From a virus (taxonomy: Duplodnaviria > Heunggongvirae > Uroviricota > Caudoviricetes), in the IMG/VR virus record IMGVR_UViG_3300009169_000014, positions 44,741 to 108,740 of that record: a stretch of 64,000 bases of DNA, one strand, 5' to 3'. Positions 2,861 to 59,103 of the stretch are shown piece by piece. Numbering within the stretch: position 1 is the stretch's first letter; every line of letters starts with the position of its first letter. The notes beneath the pieces are model-generated. The model made no database searches. It was not told where the DNA came from and saw only the letters and a program-made list of their open reading frames with translations. A program made the position numbers and the translations under genes.

Positions 2861-3556
2861 CTAGTGAAGAATGTCTGCGAGTGGCACCGGAGATTTCTCC
2901 ACCGGGGTTGTCTCATCGACGCCCTCAAGCGCGATGCGAAGTTCTTCATAGGCCTGCTTCGTAGCCTGAGGGTCCATCTTCTCCAGGATCTCAGCATTAC
3001 GGATAGCCGTCGCCCACCACTTCTGAGCTTCCTTGGCCACACCACTCGTAAGGCTGTTGCCTTTGTGCGACATGCCCCGGAAAAACGAGTCGATCATGGT
3101 GTGGCGTACAATGGCACGCGTATCAACGGAGTCCTTCCCGCCGTAGGTCCAAAGCAAGTAGTCCGCGCCCACCATGACGCCGGTCTTTAGCAGTTCCGCT
3201 GCGTAGGCGTCACCATCGTAATTCGAGGCGTAGGAGATCTTCTCCAAGCGATTCCGGAACGTGGAAGTGTCGAAGAAGAAGTACTCGTACATCAGCAGAA
3301 CGGACTCCGGGATATCGAGAACCTTTGCCACCGTAGCGCGTTCAGCCCCGGCCAAGATGAAAGCATCCAGTACGGCCCGGTGCTGGAGATCCAGATAGAG
3401 GTCGTAGGCGTAGGACACGCCAGCGTTGGGCTGGCCGGTACGTGTGATGAGCCCGTGCAACGCCAACTCCAACTCCTCCGGGGGAGGCGGAGCAGACGTC
3501 TTGACGGTCGCGAGAACAGCCTCGAACCGGTGCCGTGGCGAAACGGATTTCATCAC
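2861..3556 (-). CDS. Hypothetical protein (231 aa)
   Basis: Minus-strand ORF. Its start overlaps the stop of the 884-aa gene at 3556. Confidence 0.5.
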   Translation of the reverse strand: MMKSVSPRHRFEAVLATVKTSAPPPPEELELALHGLITRTGQPNAGVSYAYDLYLDLQHRAVLDAFILAGAERATVAKVLDIPESVLLMYEYFFFDTSTFRNRLEKISYASNYDGDAYAAELLKTGVMVGADYLLWTYGGKDSVDTRAIVRHTMIDSFFRGMSHKGNSLTSGVAKEAQKWWATAIRNAEILEKMDPQATKQAYEELRIALEGVDETTPVEKSPVPLADILH

Positions 3557-6210
3557 TACCCTTGGTAGGCGCTCGTGTCATTCTGGTCCCGGAGGATCAG
3601 AGTGTTTTGGTTGATCTTCAGAATCAGGTCACCCATACCACGGAAGGTCGAGCGAAGGTTGTCCTCGAGCGAAATGTACGCATCATCACCGATGTCACCC
3701 TTGATGCGAACCTCGTCCATCCAGAGGGTGAGCAGCACGCGGCCAAGGTTATCGAGTGACTTCTCGAGGTTCGGCAGATAACCCGCGACCATCTCCTTGA
3801 GTGATGGCGTCTGCGCCATCGACGACAGCGCCGCCGCGTCGAAAGTGCCTGCGTCGTTAAGCTGTCCCGCCTGCTCGATGAACTGCGGGTTCACCTGCTG
3901 CTGCATGGTGTCAACGGACCCGTCGTCCGACGCCATCATTGCCTGAGGCGGTTGCTGCTGCGCCTGAGCGTTGGGGTCCTGCCCCTGCTGAGCGGCGGCG
4001 TTCGGGTCCATTCCCGGCTGCGCTTGCTGCATCTGGGCGTTGGGATCCATGCCCGGCTGCGGCTGCCCCTGCGCCATCTGGGCGTTGGGATCCATGCCCG
4101 GCTGCGGCTGGCCGCCCATCCCTTGCACCGGAGCACCCGCCCCCATCATCGACGGGTCCATGGGACCGCCCATTGCGGCAGCCGCGGCAGCCGGAGCAGC
4201 GCCGGCTCCGCCGCCACTGGCGATCATGCTTGCCCGCTGCTGGATGGTCTGCACCATCTGCTGCATCTGCGTCAGCGCCTGCATCTGGCTCTGGATGCTC
4301 TGCATCTGCTCGGCGACCGCCATGTCGACGGGCGACGGACCTTGCGGCTGCTGCATCTGCGCCTGCTGCATTTGCATCATCGCCTGCTCGGCGGGATCCG
4401 GCTGCTCGGGCTGTTTCTCGGCGGCGACACTAAGCCGCGCCGCCACCTTCTCAAGCCCTGCGGGCTCGATGATCCAGAAGGAGTAGGCCCCCTGCTCCGC
4501 AGCCGTCTTCAGCGCGAACTCTGCGTCCTCGATGGTGATGACGGCTTCGGTGGCCAGCTTGCGCAGAGCCGAAACGAAGTTCGGCGTGTACTCGCCGCCG
4601 ACGTTGAAGCCGTTCTCCCCGGTGTACTTCGACACCTTCACCTTCTCGGCGCCCTCAGACAACATGGCGTCGGTGGTCCAGTTGAAGATGTCCTTCGGAG
4701 TGGTCAGGAAGTCCTTCTTGGTGAGCTCGTTCTTGGCCGGGAACCATACGAAGTTGCTCGGCATGTAGACTACGTCGCTGTTCGACGGAACCATCAGCTT
4801 GCTGCCGGGATGCTGCGCATCCGTTACCAAGGTCTTCTTGCCCCAGGCGCCCACCACCTCAATACGTCGACCCCCTTCGAAATCAGAGGTGATCGATTCG
4901 ATGGTGACAGGCGCTGTCGCGATGAAAGAAGCGCCGCGGCGCTGAACGAAGATACCCCTCTGGCCTTTGCGAGGGCCAGCAGCCGACGCCTCGCCAACGG
5001 TCTTCTTGAAGACCTCGGACCCTTCGAGTTGGCTCATCGCCACCTCTGTACCCAAGAGGTCAGTTGAGTCGATCAGGTCCCCGTCCTCGGTGACGCCGAC
5101 GTAGCGGTCGATGTGAAACTCATCTCGGCGACCGGTTTCACCAGGCACGCGGTAACGCTGGTTGTACCCGTCCAACTCGTTAGCGGGACCCGCCGACTGA
5201 TTGATGAATCGGATGTTCCGCGCCGGGATCCGCTTACCGGAGGGATCGCCAAACATGTTGATCGGATTTGCGATGACCAGCGCCACGACGGGCTTGCCAT
5301 CCTTCTTCCAGAGCTTGTAGGCCCCGGCGTTCTTGGGCTCCTTCAGGTCCAGGTACGGCTGAACCGCCAGGGCACGGTTGACCTTTTTACGGTCGTCCTT
5401 GGCGTAGTAGCCCTTCACCTTCACGCCCTGGAACGCCGCGGGAGACTGCGAGCCGAAGATGTCCTTGAACTCCGTCGAGGTAGTCTTGTCGTCGGCGACG
5501 TAAAGCGCGCCACCGTGGTTCTTGATGCCTCCGCCGTAGTCGGCGAGCTTCAGCGCGTCGACGAGCGGCTTCTCGCCGTAGAACCACACCGCCTGCTTCA
5601 GCATGGTGGGGCGTGTCTCCAGCATCTTCGCCGCTGCCTTCTTGATACGGTTCGGAGCCTTCGAGAGAAAGTCGAGGAACGCGAGCTTGGGCTCCGTTTG
5701 GCTGCGCGCTTCGTCGAAGACGCGTCCGGCCTGCTTAACGGCGCTCGACGTGTCTGAAGCGTAGCTGTACCGGCCCGTGGTGGGCGGCACGACCGTGTTT
5801 CGAATGTCGACGTCCGTCGGCATGGTCTTGGGCGGCGTGACGCCTTTCCCCATTTCTCCGAGAGACTGCTTGTCGAGCTCCTCGAGCCACTCCTTGCTCA
5901 AGGGCATGAAGGCGTTCAGATCCTTGAAGTAGAGAATGTCGAGCGGCTTGATTTGGTTGTCCGCCATCACGACCGGGACGTAGAGCGTCTGTCCGCGTCG
6001 GATGATGACGAAGGCGCCAACACCAGAACCCTCTTCGTGGTCTGTCTCCAGAACCTTGAAGGTGACGACGTCCGGCGCCACGTTGGGCAGCTTGCTCAGC
6101 AGAACATTGTAGGCCATCTGCGAGAGGCCCTGGTCGAACATGGCTTTCGCCTGATCGCTGGTCCCACCCATCTGTCCCATCGCTTGCGTCCGAGGCGAAA
6201 TTGCGGGCAT
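3556..6210 (-). CDS. Large virion-type protein (884 aa) with Q/P/M-rich low-complexity segment and triple coding tandem repeat
   Basis: Long minus-strand ORF with a globular N-terminal 600 aa. This is followed by QMQQ-rich low complexity and three copies of PQPGMDPNAQM(A/Q)QGQ, encoded by a direct nucleotide repeat at about 3960-4110. No enzymatic motif was seen. Confidence 0.6.
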   Translation of the reverse strand: MPAISPRTQAMGQMGGTSDQAKAMFDQGLSQMAYNVLLSKLPNVAPDVVTFKVLETDHEEGSGVGAFVIIRRGQTLYVPVVMADNQIKPLDILYFKDLNAFMPLSKEWLEELDKQSLGEMGKGVTPPKTMPTDVDIRNTVVPPTTGRYSYASDTSSAVKQAGRVFDEARSQTEPKLAFLDFLSKAPNRIKKAAAKMLETRPTMLKQAVWFYGEKPLVDALKLADYGGGIKNHGGALYVADDKTTSTEFKDIFGSQSPAAFQGVKVKGYYAKDDRKKVNRALAVQPYLDLKEPKNAGAYKLWKKDGKPVVALVIANPINMFGDPSGKRIPARNIRFINQSAGPANELDGYNQRYRVPGETGRRDEFHIDRYVGVTEDGDLIDSTDLLGTEVAMSQLEGSEVFKKTVGEASAAGPRKGQRGIFVQRRGASFIATAPVTIESITSDFEGGRRIEVVGAWGKKTLVTDAQHPGSKLMVPSNSDVVYMPSNFVWFPAKNELTKKDFLTTPKDIFNWTTDAMLSEGAEKVKVSKYTGENGFNVGGEYTPNFVSALRKLATEAVITIEDAEFALKTAAEQGAYSFWIIEPAGLEKVAARLSVAAEKQPEQPDPAEQAMMQMQQAQMQQPQGPSPVDMAVAEQMQSIQSQMQALTQMQQMVQTIQQRASMIASGGGAGAAPAAAAAAMGGPMDPSMMGAGAPVQGMGGQPQPGMDPNAQMAQGQPQPGMDPNAQMQQAQPGMDPNAAAQQGQDPNAQAQQQPPQAMMASDDGSVDTMQQQVNPQFIEQAGQLNDAGTFDAAALSSMAQTPSLKEMVAGYLPNLEKSLDNLGRVLLTLWMDEVRIKGDIGDDAYISLEDNLRSTFRGMGDLILKINQNTLILRDQNDTSAYQG

Positions 6211-7685: not shown

Positions 7686-8135
7686 TCAGCCATCATGCAC
7701 AACATCAGAACTACGTGGAGAATCAAACGCCTTTCCAACGGCGTGTCCTACTGGCGCCAAGAACATACCGCCTCCGATTTGTCCGAAGGCTCCTAGCGGA
7801 GTTCCTAGCAAAGCTCCAGTCGTGCGCCCAAGGAAATCTCCCGTGAGCTCGCCGGCCCCAATGTCCGGATTCGCTCGAGACGCCAAGAGTGCCCCCATCA
7901 GGGGCCACGCCAAGGTAGCCGCGAGCTGCCCCGGTGACTTCGGGAGAACCTGTCCTAGAAGTCCTTTGCGCGGATGAAAGAGCTGTCCCTTCTGAAACTG
8001 CTGCCAAGCTTTCTCTGGCTGCCCGATCCCCTGGCGCTTGACCTCTTCGAGGTAGTCATCCCAACTTCCAGCGACCTTCACCCCAAAGGCGGAGAGAGCG
8101 GCACGGGCACCCGCAGTTTGTGACAGACCCCGCAT
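7686..8135 (-). CDS. Hypothetical protein (149 aa)
   Basis: Minus-strand ORF immediately upstream in coordinates of the beta-prime C-terminal gene. Its start overlaps at 8135. Confidence 0.45.
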   Translation of the reverse strand: MRGLSQTAGARAALSAFGVKVAGSWDDYLEEVKRQGIGQPEKAWQQFQKGQLFHPRKGLLGQVLPKSPGQLAATLAWPLMGALLASRANPDIGAGELTGDFLGRTTGALLGTPLGAFGQIGGGMFLAPVGHAVGKAFDSPRSSDVVHDG

Positions 8136-9934
8136 TAGTATTTGCCTTCCGGTCCCATCCCGAATTCAGAACCGTAAGCGTAGGCCGGTACCGGGTGAGT
8201 GCTATGGCGATCTGACACTGCGCCGGTACGAGCTCCCTGAAGAAGACTGTCCTTCAAGAAGCGATGAGCCAGACGGGCCATCCAGTCCGGGTGGAGCAGC
8301 GGGTTTCGCGCCATCGGCCGCATCATGAACTCGACGCGCGGAAGTGAAGAGGCCACACCAACACTGGTGACCCCGTGGGTCTTGAGGGTGTTGAGGATCG
8401 AAGGAGTAAGAGGCGTACCCGCGGTGTAGTGGAGGACCTCTTTACCCAGTACGCCGCCCACGGCGTGAGCGAGTAGCGTATCCCGACTGCCCTTCTCCGC
8501 GGCGTTCCGATACGCCTCGTAGGGGACTACTTCTCCTTTGAGGAGCTCCGGATGCTCATCTGTGTGCTCGAGAACTTTGACGTGGTTGAGGTCTGCGCGG
8601 GCGACCAATTCAAAGTGCCGCTTGTCGACGTTGACGCCTTCCCGCCCATAGATGTCATGAAGTGCGTCCACGAGGTACTGTCGTCCAACGCCAAAACCTT
8701 TGTGGTGGATGAGCTCATCTGGTTTGGGGATTCCTTCTGAGAGTACATCACCAGCTTCCACTTTCTGATGGACACGCACAAGCGGCTTCAAATTCGGCCC
8801 AACGTAGTGCTGTACCTCATTGACGTAGATATGCGTACCGCCATGGGGCGCGGGTACGATCTTCGTAACGACCCCGGTACGCTCTGCCAGCGCCGCCTTA
8901 TTGATGAAGTTCTGCGGCACCTCGAGAAGCTGCCGAACCCCCGGCATTCCAGTGAGCTGAGAAGAAGACCCCTTGATGCTCTTCCCGCCGTGCTTGGCGC
9001 TCAACGCCATCTGGGTCAAAGGCTCAGAGATCGACTGCGCGGCACGGACACCGACATTGATGCCGATTGCGTGCGGACGTCCTCGCTCATCAAGACCTTG
9101 ACACTTGCGGCAGAGGCCTGGCGTGGCCTTACACGTCATCGGCGAGCGGACATAGACCGTCTTCACTTTGTTGCGGAGGCCCGACGCAACTGCCTTCGTC
9201 ACCAAGTCGTTCCGGCGGTAACCCGCCTGATCTCTGGAGAGGTACCTATCAATGATGTTCCCATCAGTGCTGGCGAGCGCTATACCGTTCGGTGTTCCAC
9301 AGTCGTCGGCGGTAACGACCATTGGATACATCGAGTTTGTCATGATCTTGAGCATGTCGCCAGGCTCAGAGATAGAGATGGCCGCCTGCACGGTGTTGTG
9401 CCGCACATCGTTTCCAGCGGCCCAGTAGTCCGCGGAGTGGAGCCCCTCTGAATAGGAGCGGTCAACTATCCAGGGCATCGCCCGCCCTTGGCTAGACGTC
9501 ACTGTGACCGGAGAGGATACGGTCTTGGCCAGCTGCTCCATGTTGCCGCGAGCTCCTGACATCGCCATCGCGGTCATCGTGCCTGGGTGCAGCTTGGTCT
9601 GCGCCAGCATCTTCACTTTTGCGTCGAGAAGAACCTTCTCCTTTGCCGCTGAAGTAGTGGCACTTTTCAGAGCCGCGGTCGTCGCCGTGATGAGCGCATT
9701 ACGCTCTTTGTACTGCGGCGTGATGTCATCGATGCCGACGGAGACCCCTTCGAGCGTGGAGATGTCATCCCCGAGACGCTTCAGGCTGCTGACGATCTCA
9801 ACGTAGGCAGAAGGGTCCTCTCGAGCGAGGTCCAGCAGCTTCTGCGTGAGCTCTTTCTTCCCCAGCGCCCCCGTCGTGTGGAGATGCTTGGGCAGCAGGT
9901 CGTTGACCAGGTATTTCCCAAGCGTCTGCGCCAT
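8135..9934 (-). CDS. DNA-directed RNA polymerase beta-prime subunit, C-terminal portion (regions F-H: bridge helix and trigger loop)
   Basis: Matches to conserved beta-prime blocks: MAMSGARGNMEQL (SGARGS..QirQL block); TADDCGTPNGI (DDCGT block); CRKCQGLDERGRPHAIGINVGVRAAQSISEPLTQMALSAKHGGKS (CxxCYG…[25 protein letters not shown] block). Confidence 0.8.
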   Translation of the reverse strand: MAQTLGKYLVNDLLPKHLHTTGALGKKELTQKLLDLAREDPSAYVEIVSSLKRLGDDISTLEGVSVGIDDITPQYKERNALITATTAALKSATTSAAKEKVLLDAKVKMLAQTKLHPGTMTAMAMSGARGNMEQLAKTVSSPVTVTSSQGRAMPWIVDRSYSEGLHSADYWAAGNDVRHNTVQAAISISEPGDMLKIMTNSMYPMVVTADDCGTPNGIALASTDGNIIDRYLSRDQAGYRRNDLVTKAVASGLRNKVKTVYVRSPMTCKATPGLCRKCQGLDERGRPHAIGINVGVRAAQSISEPLTQMALSAKHGGKSIKGSSSQLTGMPGVRQLLEVPQNFINKAALAERTGVVTKIVPAPHGGTHIYVNEVQHYVGPNLKPLVRVHQKVEAGDVLSEGIPKPDELIHHKGFGVGRQYLVDALHDIYGREGVNVDKRHFELVARADLNHVKVLEHTDEHPELLKGEVVPYEAYRNAAEKGSRDTLLAHAVGGVLGKEVLHYTAGTPLTPSILNTLKTHGVTSVGVASSLPRVEFMMRPMARNPLLHPDWMARLAHRFLKDSLLQGARTGAVSDRHSTHPVPAYAYGSEFGMGPEGKY

Positions 9935-9940
9935 GGAGCC

Positions 9941-10483
9941 TCAGTACTGATTGTTCTGGTTGCCAGAACTGGAGAAGGCATTCATCATCAGGGGGAGACC
10001 TGCCGACATGGCGAGCATCGGCGCCTGCTGCATCGCCGCCTGCCCCAATGAGTGGCCGAACGTTTTCCCTTCTTCGCCCTTCACACCCCCCATGAAGTTC
10101 TGGAAGAAGCCAGCGGGCTTTCCACCAGCAGCAGGAGCGCCAGCAGCAGGAGCGCCAGCAGCAGGAGCGCCAGCAGCAGGAGCGCCAGCAGCAGGAGCGC
10201 CAGCAGCAGGAGCACCGGCGCCAGCAGCGGGAGCAGCGACAGGCGCCGTAGGCTGCGGCTTCTTAGTCACGCCGGGACCCACCTGCTGCGGAAGCATGGG
10301 ACCGGGAGCGGCGGAGTTCGACGGCCCCTTGACCGGAGCGGCGGCGCCCATAACCGGCGCAGAGTTCGTCTGGGCTGCGACCCGCGGACCGCGGAACACC
10401 TGCGTGGGCATTGGCGCTGCCCCTTTGAAGAAGACACCCCACGCAGCGCGATACCCCTCATTGTACGCAGCTTCCTTGATCAT
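9941..10483 (-). CDS. Hypothetical protein (about 180 aa) with (PAAGA)n Ala-Gly-Pro repeat
   Basis: The track ORF 9941..10543 has an Arg-rich N-terminal artefact. The ATG at 10483 (MIKEAAYNEGYRAAW…) overlaps the upstream stop in an ATGA arrangement. A 15-bp unit gcaggagcgccagca is repeated about 6 times at 10121-10215. Confidence 0.5.
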   Translation of the reverse strand: MIKEAAYNEGYRAAWGVFFKGAAPMPTQVFRGPRVAAQTNSAPVMGAAAPVKGPSNSAAPGPMLPQQVGPGVTKKPQPTAPVAAPAAGAGAPAAGAPAAGAPAAGAPAAGAPAAGAPAAGGKPAGFFQNFMGGVKGEEGKTFGHSLGQAAMQQAPMLAMSAGLPLMMNAFSSSGNQNNQY

Positions 10484-10770
10484 ATTGCGGCTCCATCGCG
10501 GCCAATGCCGGAGTAATCGTGCGAAGAAGCGCCGACGCCCCAAGGAGACGTCGGGTTGCCCCAGCGCGTTGGGTTGCCGAACCGCTTGTGTCCCTCATCC
10601 TTCGACGGGACGACCTGGCTGTCCAGATTCGAAAGGGTCTTAGCGAGACGCTCCGCCGACACGTTCATGTCGCCGTGAGGAAGAGCGCGTTGAAAGGCAT
10701 CACCTGCGGTACGAAGACCGAAGTCCTCTTCCGCACGGGCCTTCCCTTCCTCGTAGGCGAGATTCATCAT
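10480..10770 (-). CDS. Small hypothetical protein (96 aa). Its N-terminus resembles that of the downstream 180-aa protein
   Basis: MMNLAYEEGKARAEEDFGL… compared with MIKEAAYNEGYRAAWGVFF… suggests a tandem paralogous start. The gene sits between the RNAP parts. Confidence 0.4.
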   Translation of the reverse strand: MMNLAYEEGKARAEEDFGLRTAGDAFQRALPHGDMNVSAERLAKTLSNLDSQVVPSKDEGHKRFGNPTRWGNPTSPWGVGASSHDYSGIGRDGAAI

Positions 10771-10926
10771 CGTGGGAGCGTAGGTGACTTGGCAGCGTTG
10801 GACAACCGAGCAGGGGCCTTCGACTGCTCTTTCCAGCCCACCAGCGCCTCGCGTCGTTTCACAGCGTCCTTCAACTTCTGCGCAAGTTCTTCCGCGGCCA
10901 GCTGCTGTCCTTCTTCGAACGCCTGC

Positions 10927-11535
10927 TTAAGGAATTGCTCCACCGCCGCCTCCTTCGCAGAACATCATGCGACGCAGATCGTCTGCATGCTGCTGGTCGG
11001 TGAAGACCATCTGTTCGAGCATGACCTTGAGCGACAGATTCTCCCCCGCCATGAGGGAGAGGTTTCGCAGCTCCTGGATGATCTGCTTCTCCGCCTGGAG
11101 CAGGACCATGAACATCTGGTGCAAGTCGTTGATGTCGGGGATGGTGCTCACCTTCGGAGTGGGCTCACCGCCCAACGCCGTGATCTTCATCGTCAGGTGG
11201 TAGGCGTCCTGACGCTCTTCGTCGGCGTGCTCTTTGAAGTGGTCGTAGATGACATCCCGGAAGTGCGCCCGGATCCGGTCACCGTAGTTGATGTACATCA
11301 TCATCATCGTGTACTTGAGCTTGAGCAGCTTCACGCACTGGCCGACGACCTTCTCCTGAGGAACTGCGAACAGCCCCTCCTCGGGAGACACCGCCAGCGG
11401 GTGAACGCCCTCCGAAGCGGTTGGCTGGGGGAGAGGAACAACAGCGCCAGCGGCTTCGGTGGCTTGGGCGTCAGGGGACTGCACCTGCTCTGGAGGCACC
11501 TCGATGCCGTCAACTGCGATCTTGTAACGAGACAT
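10927..11535 (-). CDS. Dps/ferritin-like protein with N-terminal extension (202 aa)
   Basis: …RIRAHFRDVIYDHFKEHADEERQDAYHLTMKITALGGEP… fits the Dps helix pair (lH..fee…iD.lAERi..LGG.P). Its start overlaps the RNAP stop at 11535. Confidence 0.5.
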   Translation of the reverse strand: MSRYKIAVDGIEVPPEQVQSPDAQATEAAGAVVPLPQPTASEGVHPLAVSPEEGLFAVPQEKVVGQCVKLLKLKYTMMMMYINYGDRIRAHFRDVIYDHFKEHADEERQDAYHLTMKITALGGEPTPKVSTIPDINDLHQMFMVLLQAEKQIIQELRNLSLMAGENLSLKVMLEQMVFTDQQHADDLRRMMFCEGGGGGAIP

Positions 11536-14500
11536 CAGCCCACCTCAACTTTGGTATGCAGCCCGATTTCGCCGCGCTTGTACGCGGCCATGGCATCGGC
11601 TTTGGTTTTGAACTTGTGCGTCTGCCCGTTTACGGACCCTTCGGCTTTCGTAGCCAGGTGCACGCCTAGCATAGCTTCCATGCGGGGAGCGACCATCAGG
11701 CTGTTTTGCTCGCGGTCCGAAAAGAGCAGGTTGGAGAGGGTCATTCCCTTCACCTCCGCGACGGCGGCGGGAAGAATAGGGACGTGGATCTGGAACGTGT
11801 CACCGTCGTAGTCCGCGTTCATGCCCTGTTCGATGAACGGATTCACACGGATGGTTTTGCCTGCGACGGGGACAGGGTTGGCTCCGACGAAGCCGTAACG
11901 GTGGAGCGTCGGCGCGCGGTTCACCATCACTGGACGTTCTTTGAGCTCCGCCATCATGGCGTCTCGAGCTGCCGGGTGCTTCTCGTCCAGCATCTCCTTG
12001 GCGCGAACAGCGTTGAAGCCTCGACGGATCAAGCGCCCGATGATGAACTTCCCGTACATGCCCCAGAGCATGTCTTCGGGGAGACCGATTTCGTCCATGC
12101 CCAGCGAACCGTCGGGGGCGATGGTTCCGCGGCCAGAGATGTCCTGCTGACGCTTCATGATCTTTTTCTGGAAAAAGCTGCTCTTGGGCGTCGTCTTGCC
12201 GGTGAGGTGCTCGAGCAGGCCCTTCACATTTCGCTTCTGGAGCTTGGGGTTGTCGGACTCGTGCGTGCCGACCGCAGCACCGACGGCGAGGAACAAGTTC
12301 TGGCGCAACTTGGAATGCTCATCAGGCGGGAGCACCGGCTTGTCGACCTGTGTCTGGAGGGACCGATTGTGCAGCATGAGGCTCTGATAGAGGTAGTTGG
12401 AGTCTCCGACCACGAGCTCTGAACCACTCTTCCCCGCGAGTATGGGCCGCATGATGGGCGGGAGAACAGGCATCTTCGACAACACGTAGGCATCACCAGG
12501 TCGGAGGTTCTGCTTGTCGAGGGCCTCGAGGAACTTGAGCTGCTTCACGGCGTCATCGAGCTTCACCCCGTTCAGACTCTTGATGGACGCCCGAACCTCT
12601 TTCAAGCGGGCCTTTACGTCGATCCCGTTGAGACGCTGCTTCAGCGCTGACCCTCCTGACTGGAATCGGTAAGCATCAAAGTCCTTTGATGCCATACCAA
12701 GCAGACGACGAGCTGGTTCAGCGAAAATGGGATTCACCATCGGCTCCGCGAGCTCAATGTGGCTCCACCGCGTCCCGTCGGGACCACCGGTAACAGCGGG
12801 GTCGAACAAGCCCCCGCGTTCCGGAGCCAGGTCCTTCGCACGGACCAGTTTCTCATTCTGCACGGCGCCGGCGGACATTCGCGTGATGTCGTTGTCCGTC
12901 AGCGGCATGAGCGTGCTGAGGCTTCCTCGAGTGTCCACCTTCACCCCAGCGCCGTGAAGCATGCCAATGAACTTGTCGTAGGCGAACGACGCCTTCAAAG
13001 GCGGGAGAGGCAAGCCCAGCTGTACGGCCTTCCAGAACTCATCATTCTTCTGGCTCTTGATCGACGCTGTCTCTTTCAACACGTTGCGAGCGTTATGCGC
13101 CACCAGCGCGTTGAACTCCATCTTGCCGACGGCCTTGGCGCCTTCGTCCCCGCCTTTGATGGGCTGCTGGTTGACGTCGTAGGCCCCGGTCCCACGAGCA
13201 GCGAAGTTGGTCTCTGTCGTCTTGAACAAGCGCAGCACGTACTGCGGTCCGACGAGGATGTTGGGAATCTTCTTCCCCGACACCGGGTCGAACAACGTCT
13301 CCTTGTCCTTGACTCCGTGCTCCTTCATCAGGTCCTTGGTCCACTGTACGTTGTCGCGACCGGAGAAGTTGGCAACGGCGATGGGCTTCCCCATCTTCTT
13401 AGCGACCTTGGCGACGCAGGTCTCAAGGATCTGCGCGGGGTTGATACGAGAGACGACGCCCGCCGAGGTATAGAGAACGTCGAGCGGCTTCCCCGCTTCG
13501 TCCTGGAGCATCTTGTGGTTCGGTACGATCAGGGACACGACGCCCTTATTCCCGTGACGCCCCGTGAGCTTGTCCCCGACGCGCATCGGTTCCTTGGTCC
13601 TGACAGTGACGACGACGCGCCTGTCGGTCACGTGGACGTCCATGACCTCACCCTCGAAGTCATGGTCCCAGGTCCGAACGAGCTCGCGATAGGGGTGAAC
13701 CAGTGTCTTCTTCAGATTCGACAAAAGCATGTCGGACGCGGAGAGTTTTCCACGCGTCACGCCCGCGATGAGCAGGTCGTGAGGCATCACCTTCGTGCCC
13801 TTGCGAACTACGCCGTTGGTGTCGAGCTTGCGATACTGGTCCGCCATGTACTTGGGCCCGTAGTACTGCCGATGAATCTCGCGCCCCAGAGTTGCATCGC
13901 GCTCAACCTCGAGGACCTCCTTGTACATGTGCTCGGAGGTGAGCTTGTCCGCGGCCCCTTCCGAGATGACGACGGCGTCGTTCGAGTTCATGCCGTAGTA
14001 GGGCACGTACCCGATGGTCATGTTCCGCCCCAGAGCAAAGGCACCGTCACGAGTGAAGTTCGAATCAGCTAGGCGCTGGTTCGCGTCAACGTGGTCGCCA
14101 GGCTTCACGAGTAGGTCGTGGTGAAGGTATGTCTTCGAAGCGAAGGGGAAGTTGTCCTCGTACGGGATGCGGAGGAGGTCCTTCTCCGCCGCCGCCTTCT
14201 CTCGACCGCGCTCTGAGAGGTAGTCGTCCTTGAACTCGTCCCAGGTGTACTCGGTCAACGAACCGTAGCCCCAGGGTGGACCGTGCTTCTCGTAGGCGTC
14301 CTTCGCGGCGTCCTTGGAGTCGAAGCCCACCATGCACTTGTCTTCGTCGTGCGAGCCGTCCTTCTTCCGCTGATGCACGATGTAGACGTTGTCGAACGTG
14401 CCCTCTTCCTTCAGGTAGATGTCGACGGTTTCGCCATCATCGCCAACGGTCTTGGGGATGTGGCCGTACGCCACGTACATCTTCTTCTCCCACTTTTCGC

Positions 14501-16346
14501 CCTTGTCGTTCGTCCCCGTGCGTACATCACCAGGCTCGAGCTCGATCTTCATGAGCAGGCCGTTGATGGTCTTCTGTCGTTTGACGGCGCCGCCACGCTT
14601 CTCGAACGAATTCTTCTCAATCCCAAAGTCTTCTGCGTGCTTCTTCCCAGTAGGGTCGATGTAGATGTACTGCCCGTCGACCTTCACAACCTTGCCTGCG
14701 ACGGGAGACGACGGGAGCTCCAGCATCGCGAGTGCCTTCTCCCAACTCGAGAAGACCTTGCCCGTCGCATCAGCGACACCCGACTGCACTAGGGGTGCTT
14801 CTCGGTGCACGAGCGGGAGCGCCTGCGTCATCGACTTGCCTCCCATGATGCCGCGGTTCCCCTGCACGGACTCCAAAAAGGGAACGAGGTTCGTGGCGGG
14901 AGAGTACAAGTCTGAAGCATCACTGATCTCGTGCGTAACCTCCGACCATGGAACGCGCTCCATCTTCCCGTACTTCATGACCGCGACGACCCCAAAGTGC
15001 TTCTGCCTCGGGAAGGCGACGACTGCCCGACTCATCCGCGCTGCGGACAGAAGCTCCGACTTACCGGTCTTGACGTCCCGCACCATGGAGTACAGGTTCC
15101 CCTTGGGGTCCCGGTGCGCGAACATCGAAGTACGGATGTCGATACCGGCGCGGAACGTCTCGGACGTTCGCACAGGATCAAGGATACCAAGGTGGCTCGA
15201 GTGAATCGCCCGAGCCTCGCCAGGGATTGCACGCTCGTTGGCGATGCCACCCTCGCCCAAGGAGGTCACCCGCACCGCGTGGTCAATGGCCTCCATCGGG
15301 TTGATGTGCGTTGGGATCGAGCTCAGCTGCGATCCTGTGAGGAAGCTTCGAATGCCCGCGGAAAAAGGAGAAGGCGGAAGAATGGTCCGGAGTTCCGTCT
15401 TGTGCGTGGCCCTCCCCTTCACCTTACTGGCGAGCGCCCGAGCATCCAGGGTGATGCGCTCTTTGATGAAGTCGTCGACCGAGTGGTACGTCTTGAACCG
15501 TAGAGCGTCTCGGTCGTCAGTGTCCTCGTTGTTCTTGTAGACGCTGAGGAGGCGCTTCGACGCCACCAAGAGAGACTGCGGAGTGACGCTGGAGAACTCG
15601 TGGCCCAGTGTCTCCTTGGTAACCTCAGGGTCCATCGCCGTAGCGGCGTAGGCTGTCCTGATGGCAGCGAGCTGCGACTCCGGGTCCTTTGCCATCCGCT
15701 TCGAAGGGTGCACCAGCTTCTCGTAGAGCTTCGACAGATTCTTGTCGTGCTTCCCTTCAAACGCAGACTCATTCTGCTTCGCAACGTCGGAGCCCCAGTG
15801 CGAAGAAATGTCCGTGTGTGGTACTCCCAGCTTCCGGAGTACTGAGTAAAGTGGAATGGACGTCGTGCCGTACTCGATGTACGGATGCCCCTGCGTCGGA
15901 TCCATCGACAGCCGGAAGTTGGACCCCTTCGACAAGTTGAAGGCGGCCTCCAGATCTTCGTTGCCGCGGCGACGGGTGTATACGCCCGGCTTCAGACGGA
16001 GTTGGTTAGAGACGTTGTACTCGTTGCCGTCCAAGATGAAGGTGTGCCGCCCCGTGAAGTAGGGCAGGTTAAGCAGAGTGAAGTTCTTTACCCGCTCGAG
16101 CTCCTTCCCGTCGGCCCCCCGGAGGATGACCGTCCCCTTCACAGGCTCAAAAAGAGACCCACCGCTGAGCAAAGCGCTCTTCTGATCGTGCGGACCGAAG
16201 TCCCTCTCGTGCACCTTGAGATCAACGACCTCGATTTTCTTGTCCCGAAGTGGAAGGGGAAAAGCTGTACGCAGCGCATCAAGCGCTTTCGAGCGGATTT
16301 GAATCCGCCGCGACTCGGGGTCGGTCATCACAGGCGTGAGCTGCAT
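11535..16346 (-). CDS. DNA-directed RNA polymerase, fused beta subunit plus beta-prime N-terminal portion (through the catalytic NADFDGD region)
   Basis: Beta motifs: MRVGDKLTGRHGNKGVVS (GDK…GRHGNKGV) and KAVGKMEFNALVAHNARNVLKE (GGQRFGEMEVWALEAYGAA). Beta-prime N-terminal motifs: WSHIELAEPMVNP (GHIELA.PV), VLPPIMRPIL…LYQSLMLHNRSL, and NADYDGD at 11797-11817, followed by 87 aa to the stop. The track ORF extends to 17171, but the first 275 aa are Arg-rich junk. The real start is proposed at the ATG at 16346 (MQLTPVMTDPESRRIQIRSK…). Confidence 0.85.
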   Translation of the reverse strand: MQLTPVMTDPESRRIQIRSKALDALRTAFPLPLRDKKIEVVDLKVHERDFGPHDQKSALLSGGSLFEPVKGTVILRGADGKELERVKNFTLLNLPYFTGRHTFILDGNEYNVSNQLRLKPGVYTRRRGNEDLEAAFNLSKGSNFRLSMDPTQGHPYIEYGTTSIPLYSVLRKLGVPHTDISSHWGSDVAKQNESAFEGKHDKNLSKLYEKLVHPSKRMAKDPESQLAAIRTAYAATAMDPEVTKETLGHEFSSVTPQSLLVASKRLLSVYKNNEDTDDRDALRFKTYHSVDDFIKERITLDARALASKVKGRATHKTELRTILPPSPFSAGIRSFLTGSQLSSIPTHINPMEAIDHAVRVTSLGEGGIANERAIPGEARAIHSSHLGILDPVRTSETFRAGIDIRTSMFAHRDPKGNLYSMVRDVKTGKSELLSAARMSRAVVAFPRQKHFGVVAVMKYGKMERVPWSEVTHEISDASDLYSPATNLVPFLESVQGNRGIMGGKSMTQALPLVHREAPLVQSGVADATGKVFSSWEKALAMLELPSSPVAGKVVKVDGQYIYIDPTGKKHAEDFGIEKNSFEKRGGAVKRQKTINGLLMKIELEPGDVRTGTNDKGEKWEKKMYVAYGHIPKTVGDDGETVDIYLKEEGTFDNVYIVHQRKKDGSHDEDKCMVGFDSKDAAKDAYEKHGPPWGYGSLTEYTWDEFKDDYLSERGREKAAAEKDLLRIPYEDNFPFASKTYLHHDLLVKPGDHVDANQRLADSNFTRDGAFALGRNMTIGYVPYYGMNSNDAVVISEGAADKLTSEHMYKEVLEVERDATLGREIHRQYYGPKYMADQYRKLDTNGVVRKGTKVMPHDLLIAGVTRGKLSASDMLLSNLKKTLVHPYRELVRTWDHDFEGEVMDVHVTDRRVVVTVRTKEPMRVGDKLTGRHGNKGVVSLIVPNHKMLQDEAGKPLDVLYTSAGVVSRINPAQILETCVAKVAKKMGKPIAVANFSGRDNVQWTKDLMKEHGVKDKETLFDPVSGKKIPNILVGPQYVLRLFKTTETNFAARGTGAYDVNQQPIKGGDEGAKAVGKMEFNALVAHNARNVLKETASIKSQKNDEFWKAVQLGLPLPPLKASFAYDKFIGMLHGAGVKVDTRGSLSTLMPLTDNDITRMSAGAVQNEKLVRAKDLAPERGGLFDPAVTGGPDGTRWSHIELAEPMVNPIFAEPARRLLGMASKDFDAYRFQSGGSALKQRLNGIDVKARLKEVRASIKSLNGVKLDDAVKQLKFLEALDKQNLRPGDAYVLSKMPVLPPIMRPILAGKSGSELVVGDSNYLYQSLMLHNRSLQTQVDKPVLPPDEHSKLRQNLFLAVGAAVGTHESDNPKLQKRNVKGLLEHLTGKTTPKSSFFQKKIMKRQQDISGRGTIAPDGSLGMDEIGLPEDMLWGMYGKFIIGRLIRRGFNAVRAKEMLDEKHPAARDAMMAELKERPVMVNRAPTLHRYGFVGANPVPVAGKTIRVNPFIEQGMNADYDGDTFQIHVPILPAAVAEVKGMTLSNLLFSDREQNSLMVAPRMEAMLGVHLATKAEGSVNGQTHKFKTKADAMAAYKRGEIGLHTKVEVG

Positions 16347-16430
16347 GTCCGTAAGTATAGCCCTGAAATTGGTATTAGTAGTTGAGCCCCACTGACGGGG
16401 CTTTGACGCAGTACCACGCGAGGGGAACAA

Positions 16431-17213
16431 ATGGCCAACAAAGTAGCGGGGAAGACGAAGAAAAAGAAGGTCGTAAAACGAGCGGCGCCTCCGATCCACA
16501 AGGAGGAGGCATCGTTCCTCATCGACGTCCGAGAGATTCCACCGGACAAAATCCTCCGCGCTTCGCTCGTCTGTGAAGTTGACGACCGAAAACGGTGGGA
16601 TGCGATGAGCGAGGGGATGGTGGCGAACCAGTTGCCGAGGATCGCCCGCATCGCAGCCACGCTGACCAACACCAAGGCGCGTTGCCACTTCTGCAACAAG
16701 CCGCAGGAACCGCTCTCCAAGGAGCGGATGTTTCATTTCAGCAGCGACTACAAGTTGTGCGAGTGCTTGATGGTTCTTCGCAAGCGCCCGTACGAGTACA
16801 TCCCGGGGTGGAGTCATCCTGAGAAGCTGAAGCAAATTCTCAGTCAAGTGGAAACCGGCGAGCTGCTTCCAGTGGCGCCGGTCTACCAAATCGTATGCCA
16901 CTGCGGAGAAGGCCCTGTCGTTGTTAACGCGGGACTGATCGCACAGAGCGTACTGAAGTTCGGAGCGCACGCGCGAAAGAGGCAATGTGATCGGTGCCAC
17001 TTGAAACACATGCGGGCGAAGGTCCGCCCCAATGCGCCGTTGCGTGCGCCCGTGTCGGAACTCATCGCTGTTCCTCAGGACGGGCCCGGTGGCAAGTTCA
17101 AGAGGAACCGCAAGAAGGGGCACCAGGGACCGCGGCAGGGGGCCGTGATCATCCCAGAGGGTAGCCTTCAACCTTTGACCGCGCTCGAGAAAGCGCCTGA
17201 GACACCTGCTTGA
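16431..17213 (+). CDS. Cys-rich (zinc-finger-like) basic protein, 260 aa
   Basis: A GAGGGGA Shine-Dalgarno lies 6 nt upstream of the ATG. The N-terminus is Lys-rich and there are multiple CxxC/CxC pairs (CHFCNK, CECLMVL, VCHCGEGP, RQCDRCHLKH). It is divergent from the RNAP gene. Confidence 0.5.
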   Translation: MANKVAGKTKKKKVVKRAAPPIHKEEASFLIDVREIPPDKILRASLVCEVDDRKRWDAMSEGMVANQLPRIARIAATLTNTKARCHFCNKPQEPLSKERMFHFSSDYKLCECLMVLRKRPYEYIPGWSHPEKLKQILSQVETGELLPVAPVYQIVCHCGEGPVVVNAGLIAQSVLKFGAHARKRQCDRCHLKHMRAKVRPNAPLRAPVSELIAVPQDGPGGKFKRNRKKGHQGPRQGAVIIPEGSLQPLTALEKAPETPA

Positions 17214-17828: not shown

Positions 17829-19559
17829 TTACATCGGGGGCTGAGCGCCCGCCTGAGCCTTCGCTTGAGCGCCCTGTTGGTTCTGCATATCCTCGAGCCG
17901 CTGGACCACGACCGCATACATGACCGCGTCTTCGGCCTGGAGGCTATGCATCTGTGACCGACGTGACCCGGGGTCCAGCCCCATGAGCTGCTGCACGAGC
18001 TGGTCGGCCTGCGCGATGACCGCCTGCTGGTCGTAGTTGAGCCCCGTCGATGCCTGCGCCTGCTGCTGGACCTGCTGCGCCAGGTTGTTCTGGAGCGCCT
18101 GTACCTCGCGCTGTACGCGTTGCTGGTGGCGGGCTTCGTCCAGCGTTTCCTGAAGCCGCTTCTCGCGCTCTTCATCGAGGTCGATGTCGAGCCGCTCACA
18201 GACGGTCGTCATGGAAACGAACTGCTGCCCCGTCTGCCCCGTCGCCATGTTGATGAGCATCTGCTTGGACTCGGTGTCGTCCACCATCTTCAGCGGAGTG
18301 AGCTTCGCTTCGATCTTCTCCCAGCCCAGGAACCGAGCCATCTGATCGGAGTACCACTGGAGCAGGTCGTTCATGTCATCTGCGTGACCCTGCGTCTGGT
18401 TCTGAATCAGGCGAAGCGTGGCTTCCATGCCCGCCTTGGTGAGGCCGCCGTACAGGAACTCCTGCGGAATGCCGAGCGCCGCCATGATGCTCTTCTCAGC
18501 CTCTTGGAGCTCGCCGATGGTGAGCATCGCACGGCCGTCGCCGCCCAGGTTGGAGACGCCCAAGGCAACAGGCGCCATCATGATGTGCAGCGGATCGCGG
18601 CGCCAACGCCGGATGTTCTGCTTCATCTCGTCCTGCCAGCGGGCGAGAGAAATCATCTGCGTGAAGTCCTGCTGGCCGTTCTGAGCCGGGTGCAGGATGC
18701 GCATAGGCACAACGTGCTCGAGCGCGATGGCCTCGTTCGCCTTGCGGAGCACCAAGGTGTAGAGGAACAGCTTGATGGTCGAGGCGAGAGGAGGGAAGCC
18801 CCACTGCTGGTCGATGCCCGACGGGCTCGCGACCTTGATGTGGAAGAGGGCGTCCTTCTCAAAGCGGAACGTCTTGTTGTCGCGGATGTTCTCGAGGAAC
18901 TCCATCGGCATGGAGTTGATGAGATGCTTCGACCCCGACTTCACCTGGTCTTTGATGTCCTGCGGGATGTTGTAGTAGTACACCGACTGCCCCGTGATCG
19001 GGTTGTAGTCGATGTCCATCAGCTTCGGGTCCCAGCGGATGATGTGGACCTTACTGGCCGCCAGGATCTTTCGGTCAACAACCGCACCCTGGACGTGCTT
19101 GCGGCACTTGAGACAGTAGTACGTGAACGACAGCTTCTTCAGGTCGAACTTGTAGTCGACGTGATTGATCGACGTAAGCTGCTGACACCCAGGGCACTTG
19201 AGGCTGCGCACGAAGGGCTTGTAGATGGAAGTGAAATGGTTCCCATAGACGTGCTTGTCGAGAGACGCCATCAACAGCGCACCTTTGATCTTTAGCGTCT
19301 TCTCAAAGAGCCGTCGGTAGTTACGACGGAGCGCTTCATTCGAGGTGCTGTACTCAATGTCGGTGACGACCAGCTCACCAAACTTCCGAAGCGCCGCGTA
19401 GACGTGCGCGCTGTTGTAGAGTAAATATTCGCACCATTTGAAGAGATCTTTGAGCTTGCGGGGAACGAATCCCGTGAGGAAGTCGAACGCCGGGTTCGGA
19501 TGCGACGCGGCCCTATCAAAGGCCGACATCGCATCAACGTTGGGGACTGAGTCAGACAT
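17829..19559 (-). CDS. Large virion protein, possibly portal (576 aa)
   Basis: It is the first gene of the leftward block, after a divergent promoter region. Its size is in the portal range and it has a Q-rich C-terminal tail. No diagnostic motif was found, so the assignment rests on position and size only. Confidence 0.3.
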   Translation of the reverse strand: MSDSVPNVDAMSAFDRAASHPNPAFDFLTGFVPRKLKDLFKWCEYLLYNSAHVYAALRKFGELVVTDIEYSTSNEALRRNYRRLFEKTLKIKGALLMASLDKHVYGNHFTSIYKPFVRSLKCPGCQQLTSINHVDYKFDLKKLSFTYYCLKCRKHVQGAVVDRKILAASKVHIIRWDPKLMDIDYNPITGQSVYYYNIPQDIKDQVKSGSKHLINSMPMEFLENIRDNKTFRFEKDALFHIKVASPSGIDQQWGFPPLASTIKLFLYTLVLRKANEAIALEHVVPMRILHPAQNGQQDFTQMISLARWQDEMKQNIRRWRRDPLHIMMAPVALGVSNLGGDGRAMLTIGELQEAEKSIMAALGIPQEFLYGGLTKAGMEATLRLIQNQTQGHADDMNDLLQWYSDQMARFLGWEKIEAKLTPLKMVDDTESKQMLINMATGQTGQQFVSMTTVCERLDIDLDEEREKRLQETLDEARHQQRVQREVQALQNNLAQQVQQQAQASTGLNYDQQAVIAQADQLVQQLMGLDPGSRRSQMHSLQAEDAVMYAVVVQRLEDMQNQQGAQAKAQAGAQPPM

Positions 19560-27797: not shown

Positions 27798-27805
27798 GAG
27801 TGCTC

Positions 27806-31524: not shown

Positions 31525-31529
31525 ACGCT

Positions 31530-32320: not shown

Positions 32321-32367
32321 GCTTCTAGTCGGCCGCGAGCTGAAGCCAAGCTTCTTAGGAGTCACTA

Positions 32368-57989: not shown

Positions 57990-58306
57990 CCTCCGCCACG
58001 GAGTTTCCTTTGACCCAACTATCCCCGGGCGGCTCGATGTTTCCGTCTTGGATCCCATGTACCTCTTGCAGCCAGCCGCTAAAATACCACACCGACAAGA
58101 AGTGCCCCTTTGACTCAACGGAGTTTCGTCCAGATGAAACGACGGTTGAGATGATCTTGGGTGAGATGCGTTACGCAGAGGCGACTTCGCCCAGTCGCGG
58201 AGATGACACGTGGTTGTTGGCGGTAGTTACCCGCCGCTACCTTCAGGCGTTCGAAGTCGTCGTGGACAAGCTCGCAGACCACATCAAGTTCGTGGAGGAA
58301 TCTTGA
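57986..58306 (+). CDS. Hypothetical protein (106 aa)
   Basis: ATGA overlap. Contains CTSCSQP…C. Confidence 0.4.
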   Translation: MTSATEFPLTQLSPGGSMFPSWIPCTSCSQPLKYHTDKKCPFDSTEFRPDETTVEMILGEMRYAEATSPSRGDDTWLLAVVTRRYLQAFEVVVDKLADHIKFVEES

Positions 58307-59081: not shown

Positions 59082-59103
59082 TCGGCGTAGGGTTGAGAAA
59101 CGA

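Follow-up and report, generated by a model that had tools for sequence, protein, structure and literature searches.

The 64,000-nucleotide stretch of Caudoviricetes DNA described here (the window; positions 44,741 to 108,740 of the IMG/VR virus record IMGVR_UViG_3300009169_000014) encodes a bacterial-type multisubunit RNA polymerase (RNAP) in two polypeptides. In the first, a complete beta subunit runs on into the first third of beta-prime, and the second contains the rest of beta-prime. The same layout is found in the lineage of Salmonella phage Arash, which consists of phages of 160-200 kb that are abundant in metagenomes and whose polymerase is unanalysed in the literature found. The whole explanation that is preferred here is, on balance, probable: an enzyme that would be packaged and injected, assembled without alpha and guided by a sigma factor, and that would carry a cassette clearing pyrophosphate. 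An earlier reading of the DNA without database searches (the sequence-only reading) had described a genuine phage multisubunit RNAP with beta fused to the beta-prime N-terminus and a separate beta-prime C-terminus. Pfam Rpb2 and Rpb1 domains and phmmer matches in the PDB to bacterial beta and beta-prime bear this out, and both open reading frames (ORFs) lie on the minus strand at the coordinates given there. Its inventory of features was incomplete, as it missed an inorganic-pyrophosphatase (InPase) cassette in beta and a conserved sigma-70-family gene.

The lineage comprises at least 150 IMG/VR loci and four isolates (Arash, D69, D181, and D148). The IMG/VR comparison set consists of 80 related loci gathered with a beta-prime C profile. 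A megablast of the region against 50,697 phage records gave no match; the relatives are visible at the protein level only. Two independent contigs, of 187,070 bp and 16.8 kb, encode the identical fusion protein of 1603 amino acids (aa), and the gene call agrees. The phage genome is about 187 kb and relatives reach 198 kb, which makes the label "non-jumbo" in the sequence-only reading marginal.

Fusion of beta with the N-terminal region of beta-prime

11535..16346, minus strand: beta::beta-prime-N fusion gene, 1603 aa (Pfam, PDB phmmer, and an independent gene call of the same 1603 aa)
13542..13577, minus strand: beta active-site motif GDKLTGRHGNKG, aa 924-935 (aligned with bacterial GDKMAGRHGNKG; coordinates checked)
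12906..12932, minus strand: beta/beta-prime junction TRGSLSTLM, aa ~1139-1147, with no long linker (family alignment)
12741..12815, minus strand: position expected for the beta-prime N-terminal zinc finger (GGLFDPAVTGGPDGTRWSHIELAEP), Cys-free (translation and alignment)
11799..11819, minus strand: catalytic Mg loop NADYDGD, aa 1510-1516 (within the Rpb1_2 match; coordinates checked)

The fusion protein contains a complete beta and the first third of beta-prime, and ends 87 aa past the Mg-binding loop. Its Pfam matches are Rpb2_3 (aa 347-397), InPase (aa 588-707), and Rpb2_6 (aa 741-1065, E 5e-51), followed in the beta-prime part by Rpb1_1 (aa 1241-1384) and Rpb1_2 (aa 1469-1536, E 3e-18). The RpoB/RpoC profile search that had been proposed as a check thus matched the expected domains. 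In phmmer searches of the PDB, aa 68-561 and 738-1115 align to bacterial beta (best E 3e-67), and aa 1221-1602 align to beta-prime residues ~160-550 (E 3e-44). The protein stops at position 533 of the NCBIfam rpoC_TIGR model. The beta N-terminal part is ~115 aa long, versus ~230 in the best-matching bacterial beta (PDB 7l7b chain C). The identity of the phage proteins to any bacterial subunit is only ~30%. The phrase "highly divergent" in the sequence-only reading is nevertheless overstated, as the proteins are much closer to bacterial beta and beta-prime than to the phiKZ-type PHROG families.

The motif GDKLTGRHGNKG matches bacterial GDKMAGRHGNKG column by column, with the GDK...HGNKG lysine motif at the aligned position, and NADYDGD lies inside Rpb1_2. 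The residues D1512, D1514, and D1516 of this loop are invariant across the aligned family. Both motifs therefore occupy the aligned catalytic positions, as had been supposed; the distance of 87 aa from NADYDGD to the stop was also given correctly, and the coordinates 11797-11817 assigned to it are 2 nt off. The whole fusion protein has two Cys (aa 671 and 977), neither of them at the expected site, and the beta-prime N-terminal zinc finger is therefore absent, in agreement with the sequence-only reading. The same Cys-free sequence type is found at the GGLFDPAVTGGPDGTRWSHIELAEP site in all aligned relatives. The rifampicin-cluster-I region differs at the positions mapped to D516 and Q513 of the E. 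coli sequence.

The separate C-terminal part of beta-prime

8135..9934, minus strand: beta-prime C gene, 599 aa (Pfam Rpb1_5 and weak Rpb1_4; PDB phmmer; NCBIfam rpoC; coordinates checked)
9542-9559, minus strand: SGARGN motif of beta-prime C (translation)
9101-9307, minus strand: second zinc site C212/C268/C275/C278 of beta-prime C (translation)
9002-9055, minus strand: VGVRAAQSISEPLTQMAL block of beta-prime C, the trigger loop as assigned in the sequence-only reading (translation)
7686..8135, minus strand: small gene, 149 aa, with a Gly-rich C-terminal half; its ATG overlaps the beta-prime C stop (TAATG)

The beta-prime C protein matches Pfam Rpb1_5 (E 3e-20) and, weakly, Rpb1_4, and aligns to positions 550-1070 of the rpoC_TIGR model. 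The motifs SGARGN, DDCGT, C-x6-C-x2-C, and VGVRAAQSISEPLTQMAL are all found, and the C-terminal region is also there. The protein has exactly four Cys, which together make the second zinc site. The 149-aa gene that follows has homologues after beta-prime C in loci L003, L006, and L007, and genes of similar size stand there in L004 and L005.

Conservation of the junction

In 77 of the 80 IMG/VR loci, a single open frame runs from the end of beta into the start of beta-prime through a junction of 8-10 codons; the remaining three either lack upstream sequence or are too divergent. The junction consensus AGVKVD-xx-GS-x-L-x-L-x-PLTD is kept across the family. The 120 best-scoring homologues have the same Pfam order and range from 1436 to 2480 aa (mostly 1436-1680 aa), the longer ones being enlarged by inteins or other big insertions. 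The fusion is one annotated gene in the isolates Arash (gp206, 1525 aa) and Vibrio phage D69. The sequence-only reading had asked which clades share it; the clade found here is the Arash-like lineage.

A few members of the family depart from this plain form. In D181 (L011 5525-6473), a homing-endonuclease element of ~950 bp breaks the fusion gene after ~aa 514, and the hit pattern of Vibrio phage D148 is the same as that of the interrupted D181 gene. Inteins (PF14528, PF14890) occur among the metagenomic homologues (proteins P0014, P0015, P0038, P0039, P0041, and P0105). Some IMG/VR fusion ORFs have 570-630 aa extra past the catalytic loop. The RNAP genes of D69 (L010; 9980-14563 and 15202-17031) were deposited as "hypothetical protein", as were the D181 ORFs and those in the D148 hit summary.

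Pyrophosphatase cassette in beta

14148..14642, minus strand: cassette of ~165 aa (aa 569-733) in a beta surface loop (alignment with cassette-free relatives)
14226-14585, minus strand: InPase domain PF18823, aa 588-707 (Pfam E 7e-32)

The InPase match scores 110.5 bits against a gathering cut-off of 26.8. The insert is bounded by YIYIDP and LLRIPYEDNFPFASK, which the cassette-free forms, including Arash, bridge with a short loop. Counted back from the NFEDS motif, the insert site presumably corresponds to ~residue 740 of E. coli beta. The best PHROG matches of the cassette are minor head proteins, virion structural proteins, and DarB-like giant proteins, and its best PDB sequence match is the C-terminal domain of a phage portal, 9b41_L (gp19 portal). 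Among 52 homologues, with inserts down to 28% identity, there is little or no variation at the Y-G, P, D-G-E, D, and D-E-x-K positions. The acidic metal-binding motifs D-x-D/E-x-x-D and D/E-x-K take the form DGETVD and DEDK in the cassette; D, D, and K are invariant, and E, D, and E are at least 90% conserved. Foldseek, run on an AlphaFold model of the cassette (pLDDT 78.6), returned almost only inorganic pyrophosphatases, with a probability of ~1 for the best. By sequence and modelled fold the cassette is assigned to the family-I inorganic-pyrophosphatase type, and its activity is predicted.

Among the 74 scorable loci the cassette site is empty in 52, holds InPase in 8, a detected GNAT in 1, and other inserts of 40-193 aa in 13. 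One of these 13, L062, lies on the contig of the GNAT-bearing protein P0085. GNAT acetyltransferase forms among the database proteins are P0062 (L004 10001-14752), P0080, P0082, and P0085. The loop holds GNAT or unassigned inserts of 89-193 aa in L004, L052, L053, L055, L061, L063, and L043. Since the site can be empty or hold InPase, GNAT, or another insert, the loop is a slot in which enzymatic cargo is optional. Most relatives have no cassette or have another domain there, and the polymerase therefore does not need it to function.

The InPase of phage polyvalent proteins and portal fusions (PF18823) belongs to the same domain family, but in the window it lies inside RNAP beta, a context that does not appear in the polyvalent-protein paper (Iyer et al. 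2017). In that paper the domains are proposed to be packaged and either to clear pyrophosphate for early transcription or to act on nucleotide-like molecules. In the preferred explanation the cassette would be catalytically active and would remove pyrophosphate beside the enzyme, which would favour synthesis over pyrophosphorolysis. Alternatively, the cassette would be an injected effector that rides on the polymerase and hydrolyses a nucleotide-like host signal or defence molecule. The effector idea concerns the cassette only and is possible, though the less probable of the two. It fits a swappable cargo slot, as the same loop holds GNAT or other cassettes and mostly none, and it agrees with the nucleotide-derived substrates that Iyer et al. 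(2017) propose as one InPase role; AR9-type virion RNAPs also carry a fused HD phosphohydrolase, to which no role is assigned. However, the same authors equally propose pyrophosphate clearance for early transcription, and the conserved residues match those of true inorganic pyrophosphatases.

Probable packaging and the virion gene block

17829..19559, minus strand: portal gene, 576 aa (30% identity, E 5e-90, to the Arash gp204 portal)

The RNAP genes are flanked on one side by the portal gene and on the other by homologues of virion proteins that mass spectrometry has detected. The portal is in the same upstream position in all relatives examined. Downstream, an 884-aa protein (3556..6210, minus strand) is homologous to Arash gp218, a structural protein supported by mass spectrometry. 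This protein is of low complexity, with a Q/P/M-rich stretch and GMDPNAQ repeats. No Pfam or PHROG match was obtained for the two small gap genes between the RNAP genes, for the downstream 149-, 452-, and 884-aa proteins, for the portal, or for the 166-aa gene, and NCBIfam, run on the portal and the 884-aa protein only, gave no match. The portal and the 884-aa protein are assigned only through their Arash homology. In the distant relative L083, the gene after the RNAP gene has a T4 gp5 hub domain.

Mass spectrometry of Arash virions found gp206, the fusion homologue, with 3516 spectra (rank first) and gp216, the beta-prime C homologue, with 1210 (rank fifth) (Arash paper). Both RNAP homologues are thus abundant in the Arash virion proteome, and packaging is therefore plausible. 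The placement of the genes in a virion-protein block, as described in the sequence-only reading, is upheld by these data. InPase domains, which are typical of packaged polyvalent proteins and portal fusions, also support packaging, as does the motif CTATACT, which the fusion gene has in common with the gene for the gp218 homologue. By analogy with Arash, it is likely that the RNAP of this phage is packaged in the virion.

A polymerase that acts only inside the cell is the alternative. It would transcribe middle and late genes like the non-virion RNAP (nvRNAP) of phiKZ, the host RNAP would transcribe the early genes, and the virion signal in Arash would be carry-over. The Arash virion list does include ribonucleotide reductases, RNA ligases, primase, and helicases, and its authors raise carry-over; the phage sigma-70-family proteins could also steer the host core to phage genes, a role that reviews suggest in jumbo phages without RNAP. 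Yet the fusion homologue has the top spectral count in Arash and beta-prime C the fifth, every relative examined has the genes set between portal and virion genes, and cassettes of this type are known elsewhere from packaged or portal-fused proteins. Arash has a single detectable RNAP set, which leaves no separate virion enzyme there. A purely intracellular role is accordingly considered unlikely.

Sigma factor and upstream module

24873..25706, minus strand: sigma-70-family gene, 277 aa, regions 2 and 4 (Pfam Sigma70_r2/r4; NCBIfam sigma-70 superfamily model passed)
19662..21719, plus strand: SNF2-family helicase gene, divergent from the portal gene (Pfam SNF2-rel_dom, Helicase_C; syntenic in L004, L005, and Arash)
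16353..16359, minus strand: promoter-like motif CTATACT, then T + 6 nt to the fusion ATG (motif scan; comparison of relatives)

The sigma gene is homologous to Arash gp196 and lies ~8.5 kb upstream of the fusion gene on the same strand. The module of sigma, (ParB, PD-(D/E)XK nuclease), SNF2 helicase, portal, small gene, and fusion is conserved in L004, L005, Arash, and D69. A linkage of SNF2 with RNAP genes is known in phiKZ-type phages, where a RapA-like role has been suggested (Iyer et al. 2021). Arash has a second sigma, gp10, which sits in the structural-gene block and is detected in virions; no homologue of gp10 was found in the window. According to the jumbo comparative-genomics survey, sigma is missing from the group 1 jumbo phages that encode an RNAP, and RNAP is missing from the jumbo phages that encode a sigma. 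The Arash-like lineage, unlike the jumbo groups surveyed, combines its own RNAP with a sigma-70-family gene.

The fusion has a segment aligned with the presumed bacterial flap-tip helix. A clamp coiled-coil-like segment, presumably equivalent to the one in the E. coli sequence, is kept in the family consensus. These retained segments are consistent with sigma docking and prove nothing.

The window contains six copies of the motif CTATACT, all of them on the minus strand (16353, 62991, 45577, 38048, 6266, and 1726). Five of the six copies lie at most 65 nt upstream of a minus-strand start codon, three of them, including that of the fusion gene, only 6-10 nt from the ATG, and one precedes the gene for the gp218 homologue. 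The motif precedes the RNAP gene in L003, L005, L006, and L007 and is absent there in L004, Arash, and D69. Since it is missing in Arash and D69, it is a subclade feature at most. As a lead, CTATACT is possibly a subclade-specific -10-like element, perhaps for leaderless late transcripts. A scan of the window for consensus sigma-70 promoters found fewer sites than in shuffled controls, and no convincing terminator was found on the minus strand between the two RNAP genes. The fusion, ferritin, gap, beta-prime C, and 149-aa genes are tightly spaced, with start/stop overlaps at two junctions.

Proposed assembly without alpha

No RpoA or RpoZ Pfam match was found in the ~65 ORFs scanned in the 64-kb window, in line with the sequence-only reading, which had seen no alpha or omega homologue. 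In the preferred explanation, the covalent link of beta and beta-prime would replace the alpha dimer as an assembly platform. A hybrid enzyme would instead combine the phage beta and beta-prime with a host alpha dimer, host omega, or both, and perhaps a host sigma, and the phage sigma could act on either core. The missing phage alpha and omega would suit a hybrid, and so would the closeness of the phage proteins to bacterial beta and beta-prime (E 3e-67 and 3e-44) compared with the phiKZ-type families. The beta-prime C-terminal region binds omega in bacteria, and this region is present in the phage protein. However, the identity to any bacterial subunit is only ~30%, and the beta N-terminal part is about half as long as in 7l7b chain C. 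An injected enzyme would have no time to recruit host subunits, unless these too were packaged, and according to reviews the phiKZ and AR9 enzymes work without alpha or omega. A hybrid is therefore regarded as improbable.

The weakest alternative, a frameshift, a mis-assembly, or bacterial rpoB/rpoC contamination of a metagenome contig, part of which the sequence-only reading had itself raised, has no direct support apart from the bacterial rpoBC contaminants that the phage database does hold (matching at ~30% identity), and it is ruled out for practical purposes by the identical protein on independent contigs, the in-frame junction at 77 of 80 loci, the cultured phages with the same layout, and the flanking phage genes (portal, terminase, PolA).

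Proposed working of the enzyme

The preferred explanation has two polypeptides. Polypeptide 1 is a full beta joined head to tail with beta-prime to a point just past the double-psi beta-barrel (DPBB), and polypeptide 2 is the rest of beta-prime. The enzyme would be made late together with the virion proteins, packaged, and injected, and would then transcribe the early genes without the host polymerase. Promoters would be recognised by phage-encoded sigma-70-family factors, one of which is encoded in the same module.

Several observations weigh against this explanation. The Arash virion list holds many replication and nucleotide-metabolism enzymes, and its authors allow for carry-over of abundant non-structural proteins. 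The window covers 64 of ~187 kb, and the remainder of the genome may encode a further RNAP set, an alpha-like assembly factor, or a packaged sigma. The phage sigma may bind the host core rather than the phage core. The Foldseek matches of the cassette to pyrophosphatases have low TM-scores (0.3-0.46), and the 52 empty sites at 74 scorable loci show that most relatives do without a cassette.

The beta-prime split and the genes in the gap

10927..11535, minus strand: ferritin/Dps-like gene, 202 aa (PF00210, E 9e-11); its ATG overlaps the fusion stop (TGATG)
10480..10770, minus strand: small gap gene, 96 aa (no Pfam or PHROG match)
9941..10483, minus strand: low-complexity gap gene, 180 aa from the ATG at 10483, with about seven APAAG repeats (gene call in L002; translation)
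L083 5516-11686; L089 5525-11869; L086 5780-11761; L090 5666-11719: single-chain RNAP ORFs of distant relatives (ORF and motif scan)

The Dps/ferritin-like gene and the two small genes that had been described between the RNAP genes are present, and the 180-aa APAAG-repeat gene has no Pfam or PHROG family match. Among the loci compared, the closest relatives L006 and L007 are the only ones to share these three gap genes. Other relatives (D69 among them) have two unrelated small genes in the gap, and Arash has nine small genes on both strands. In L005 the gap is filled by a LigD-type primase-polymerase gene (14359-15945, 528 aa). The distance from the fusion end to beta-prime C is 0.5-5.7 kb, with a median of ~1.5 kb, in 73 split loci. 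The gap genes are variable cargo and not enzyme parts. Their inclusion in the architecture by the sequence-only reading does not hold, as they differ among relatives and the gap is missing in four distant ones.

These four (L083, L086, L089, and L090) have a gapless single ORF of 1994-2115 aa that contains beta and all of beta-prime. Read along the single chain, the motifs are GNKG, the catalytic loop, SGARG, and the CxxC belonging to the second zinc site; NADxDGD was matched in three of these loci, and SGARG in L083 and L086. Pfam matches from Rpb2_3 through Rpb1_5 lie in one chain in L083 and L089, and in L083 Rpb1 domain 3 spans exactly the point that is split in the window. No single-chain form was found among the cultured phages of the database searched. 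Because some relatives are single-chain and others are split with varied genes in between, the window represents the split form of a mixed lineage. The split point is a hot spot for inserted genes, and the break is probably an old feature of the lineage.

Comparison with known polymerases

Arash-like isolates: Arash (gp206 and gp216), D69, D181, and D148 (180-187 kb) have the same two-gene layout as the window. The Arash homologues are 36% (fusion) and 32% (beta-prime C) identical to those of the window, and the window terminase is 31% identical to Arash gp1. The order of the Arash-type module is as in the window, namely sigma, helicases, portal, small gene, fusion, gap, beta-prime C, and virion genes. 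In contrast to the window, Arash and D69 have no pyrophosphatase cassette, the gap contains nine small genes in Arash and two in D69 against three in the window, and the fusion gene that is broken by a homing-endonuclease element in D181 and D148 is intact. Arash is a myovirus and an unclassified member of the Caudoviricetes; its paper names the proteins beta and beta-prime and does not describe the fusion.

PhiKZ/AR9-type phages: The likeness to these phages consists of phage-encoded beta and beta-prime, a beta-prime split past the catalytic barrel, the lack of alpha and omega, and an SNF2 helicase linked to the RNAP genes. One of their sets is packaged in virions, and the AR9 virion RNAP (vRNAP) carries a fused HD phosphohydrolase domain. 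Their beta, however, is in two or three unfused pieces, whereas the beta of the window is whole and fused to beta-prime N. They have two paralogous sets and no sigma homologue, whereas one set and a sigma-70-family gene are seen in the window, and one matching place is found in the whole Arash genome. Their sequences are also much further from bacterial RNAP than the window enzyme.

Site of the beta-prime split: The virion and non-virion beta-prime of phiKZ and AR9 are split just past the catalytic barrel, which coincides with the cyanobacterial split (Sokolova review, PMC7598289). The beta-prime N proteins of E. coli phage EP_H11 (522 aa) and Ralstonia phage RP13 (517 aa) end within ~35 residues of the break in the window, and beta-prime is unsplit in Vibrio phage Va2 and Rhizobium phage RHph_TM30. 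A short query (the last 171 aa of the fusion) did not match phiKZ itself, and the phiKZ/AR9 split is known here from the review. The window's break is thus at a familiar site, and only the joining of a whole beta to beta-prime N is unusual. The sequence-only reading had contrasted the whole fusion/split pattern with phiKZ and AR9; this is right for the unsplit, fused beta and wrong for the beta-prime split, which lies in the same post-DPBB region as in RP13 and EP_H11.

Earlier descriptions: A beta::beta-prime-N fusion in a tailed phage is not described in the jumbo-RNAP review, the jumbo survey, the mReC paper, the June 2026 review, or the Arash paper. The exception in the literature is the very divergent single-chain RNAP of crAss phages, and the mReC paper mentions a fusion for the crAssphage RNAP only.

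Cellular fusions: The best NCBIfam match of the fusion is PRK09603, at 335 bits against a cut-off of 5372 and thus far below it. PRK09603 and PRK14844 are the Helicobacter and Wolbachia fusion types. They have the C-terminus of beta joined directly to the N-terminus of beta-prime, as in the window, and the single-chain distant relatives resemble them in carrying the complete fusion. The window protein differs from them in its phage context, in having no N-terminal zinc finger, and in that the fused part of beta-prime is limited to its first third.

Cyanobacteria and plastids: The fusion aligns to residues 178-555 of the 624 in cyanobacterial/plastid gamma (RpoC1), and beta-prime C starts near the start of RpoC2. 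Cyanobacterial gamma runs ~70 residues beyond the end of the phage fusion, and the two split points are perhaps not exactly homologous. Unlike in the window, beta is a separate subunit in cyanobacteria and plastids, and alpha, omega, and a host sigma are present.

mReC clade and Kleczkowskaviridae: Like the window phage, the mReC clade and the Kleczkowskaviridae (RHph_TM30) are tailed phages of up to ~200 kb with bacterial-like RNAP large subunits. The beta-prime of RHph_TM30 (1127 aa) is unsplit and unfused, whereas that of the window is split and fused. The mReC clade is marked by separate beta and beta-prime genes, a gp23-type capsid (PF07068), and a PF03237 terminase (Weinheimer and Aylward 2020). 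The window terminase is PF05876 and its RNAP is fused and split; membership of the mReC clade was rejected because terminase family and beta-prime layout differ.

Significance of the lineage

The distinguishing set of this lineage is an unsplit beta fused to beta-prime, one RNAP set as far as seen, sigma-70-family genes, and an optional cassette. Work on phage multisubunit RNAPs has dealt almost exclusively with the phiKZ/AR9-type jumbo phages, whose enzymes have two fragmented large subunits and use no sigma. The present lineage runs opposite to this trend, with beta fused to beta-prime wholly or up to the split and sigma-70-family genes nearby. A further and tentative proposal is that the lineage has a minimal, self-sufficient, sigma-directed RNAP of one or two chains, lacking alpha and omega, that is packaged and injected and has a slot for swappable cassettes, and that the split arose by gene insertion into rpoC. 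As both single-chain and split forms exist, with variable genes at the site where phiKZ, AR9, and cyanobacterial enzymes are split, the lineage would then be a living intermediate between cellular and jumbo-phage RNAP.

If self-sufficient, the enzyme would be the simplest sigma-type RNAP core known, with one or two chains. Because the enzyme is close to bacterial RNAP, it is a promising subject for structural and mechanistic studies. The split and unsplit members make the origin of the beta-prime split testable, and the pyrophosphatase housed in beta offers a direct test of product removal in cis. Phages of this kind may do without the host RNAP and be insensitive to rifampicin, as far as can be inferred, which is of interest for phage biology and therapy.

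Other features of the window

A Cys-rich 260-aa ORF (16431..17213, plus strand), which has homologues only in L006 and L007, lies between the 166-aa gene and the RNAP gene. It has no family match, and a stem-loop is present between it and the RNAP gene. No tRNA genes and no Rfam families were found in the whole window. ORF-poor stretches of 636-843 nt are located at 31525-32367, 41608-42369, and 59082-59717. A 130-aa ORF (58210..58602, plus strand) matches PF18909, the N-terminal domain of dATP/dGTP diphosphohydrolase (E 5e-34). It is presumably an enzyme of the MazZ-like kind, associated with editing of the nucleotide pool in phages whose DNA is modified; the window gave no match to PurZ-like proteins (adenylosuccinate synthetase). 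The plus strand also encodes, at 27755..30778, a 1007-aa family A DNA polymerase with an N-terminal uracil-DNA-glycosylase-superfamily domain and a 3'-5' exonuclease domain.

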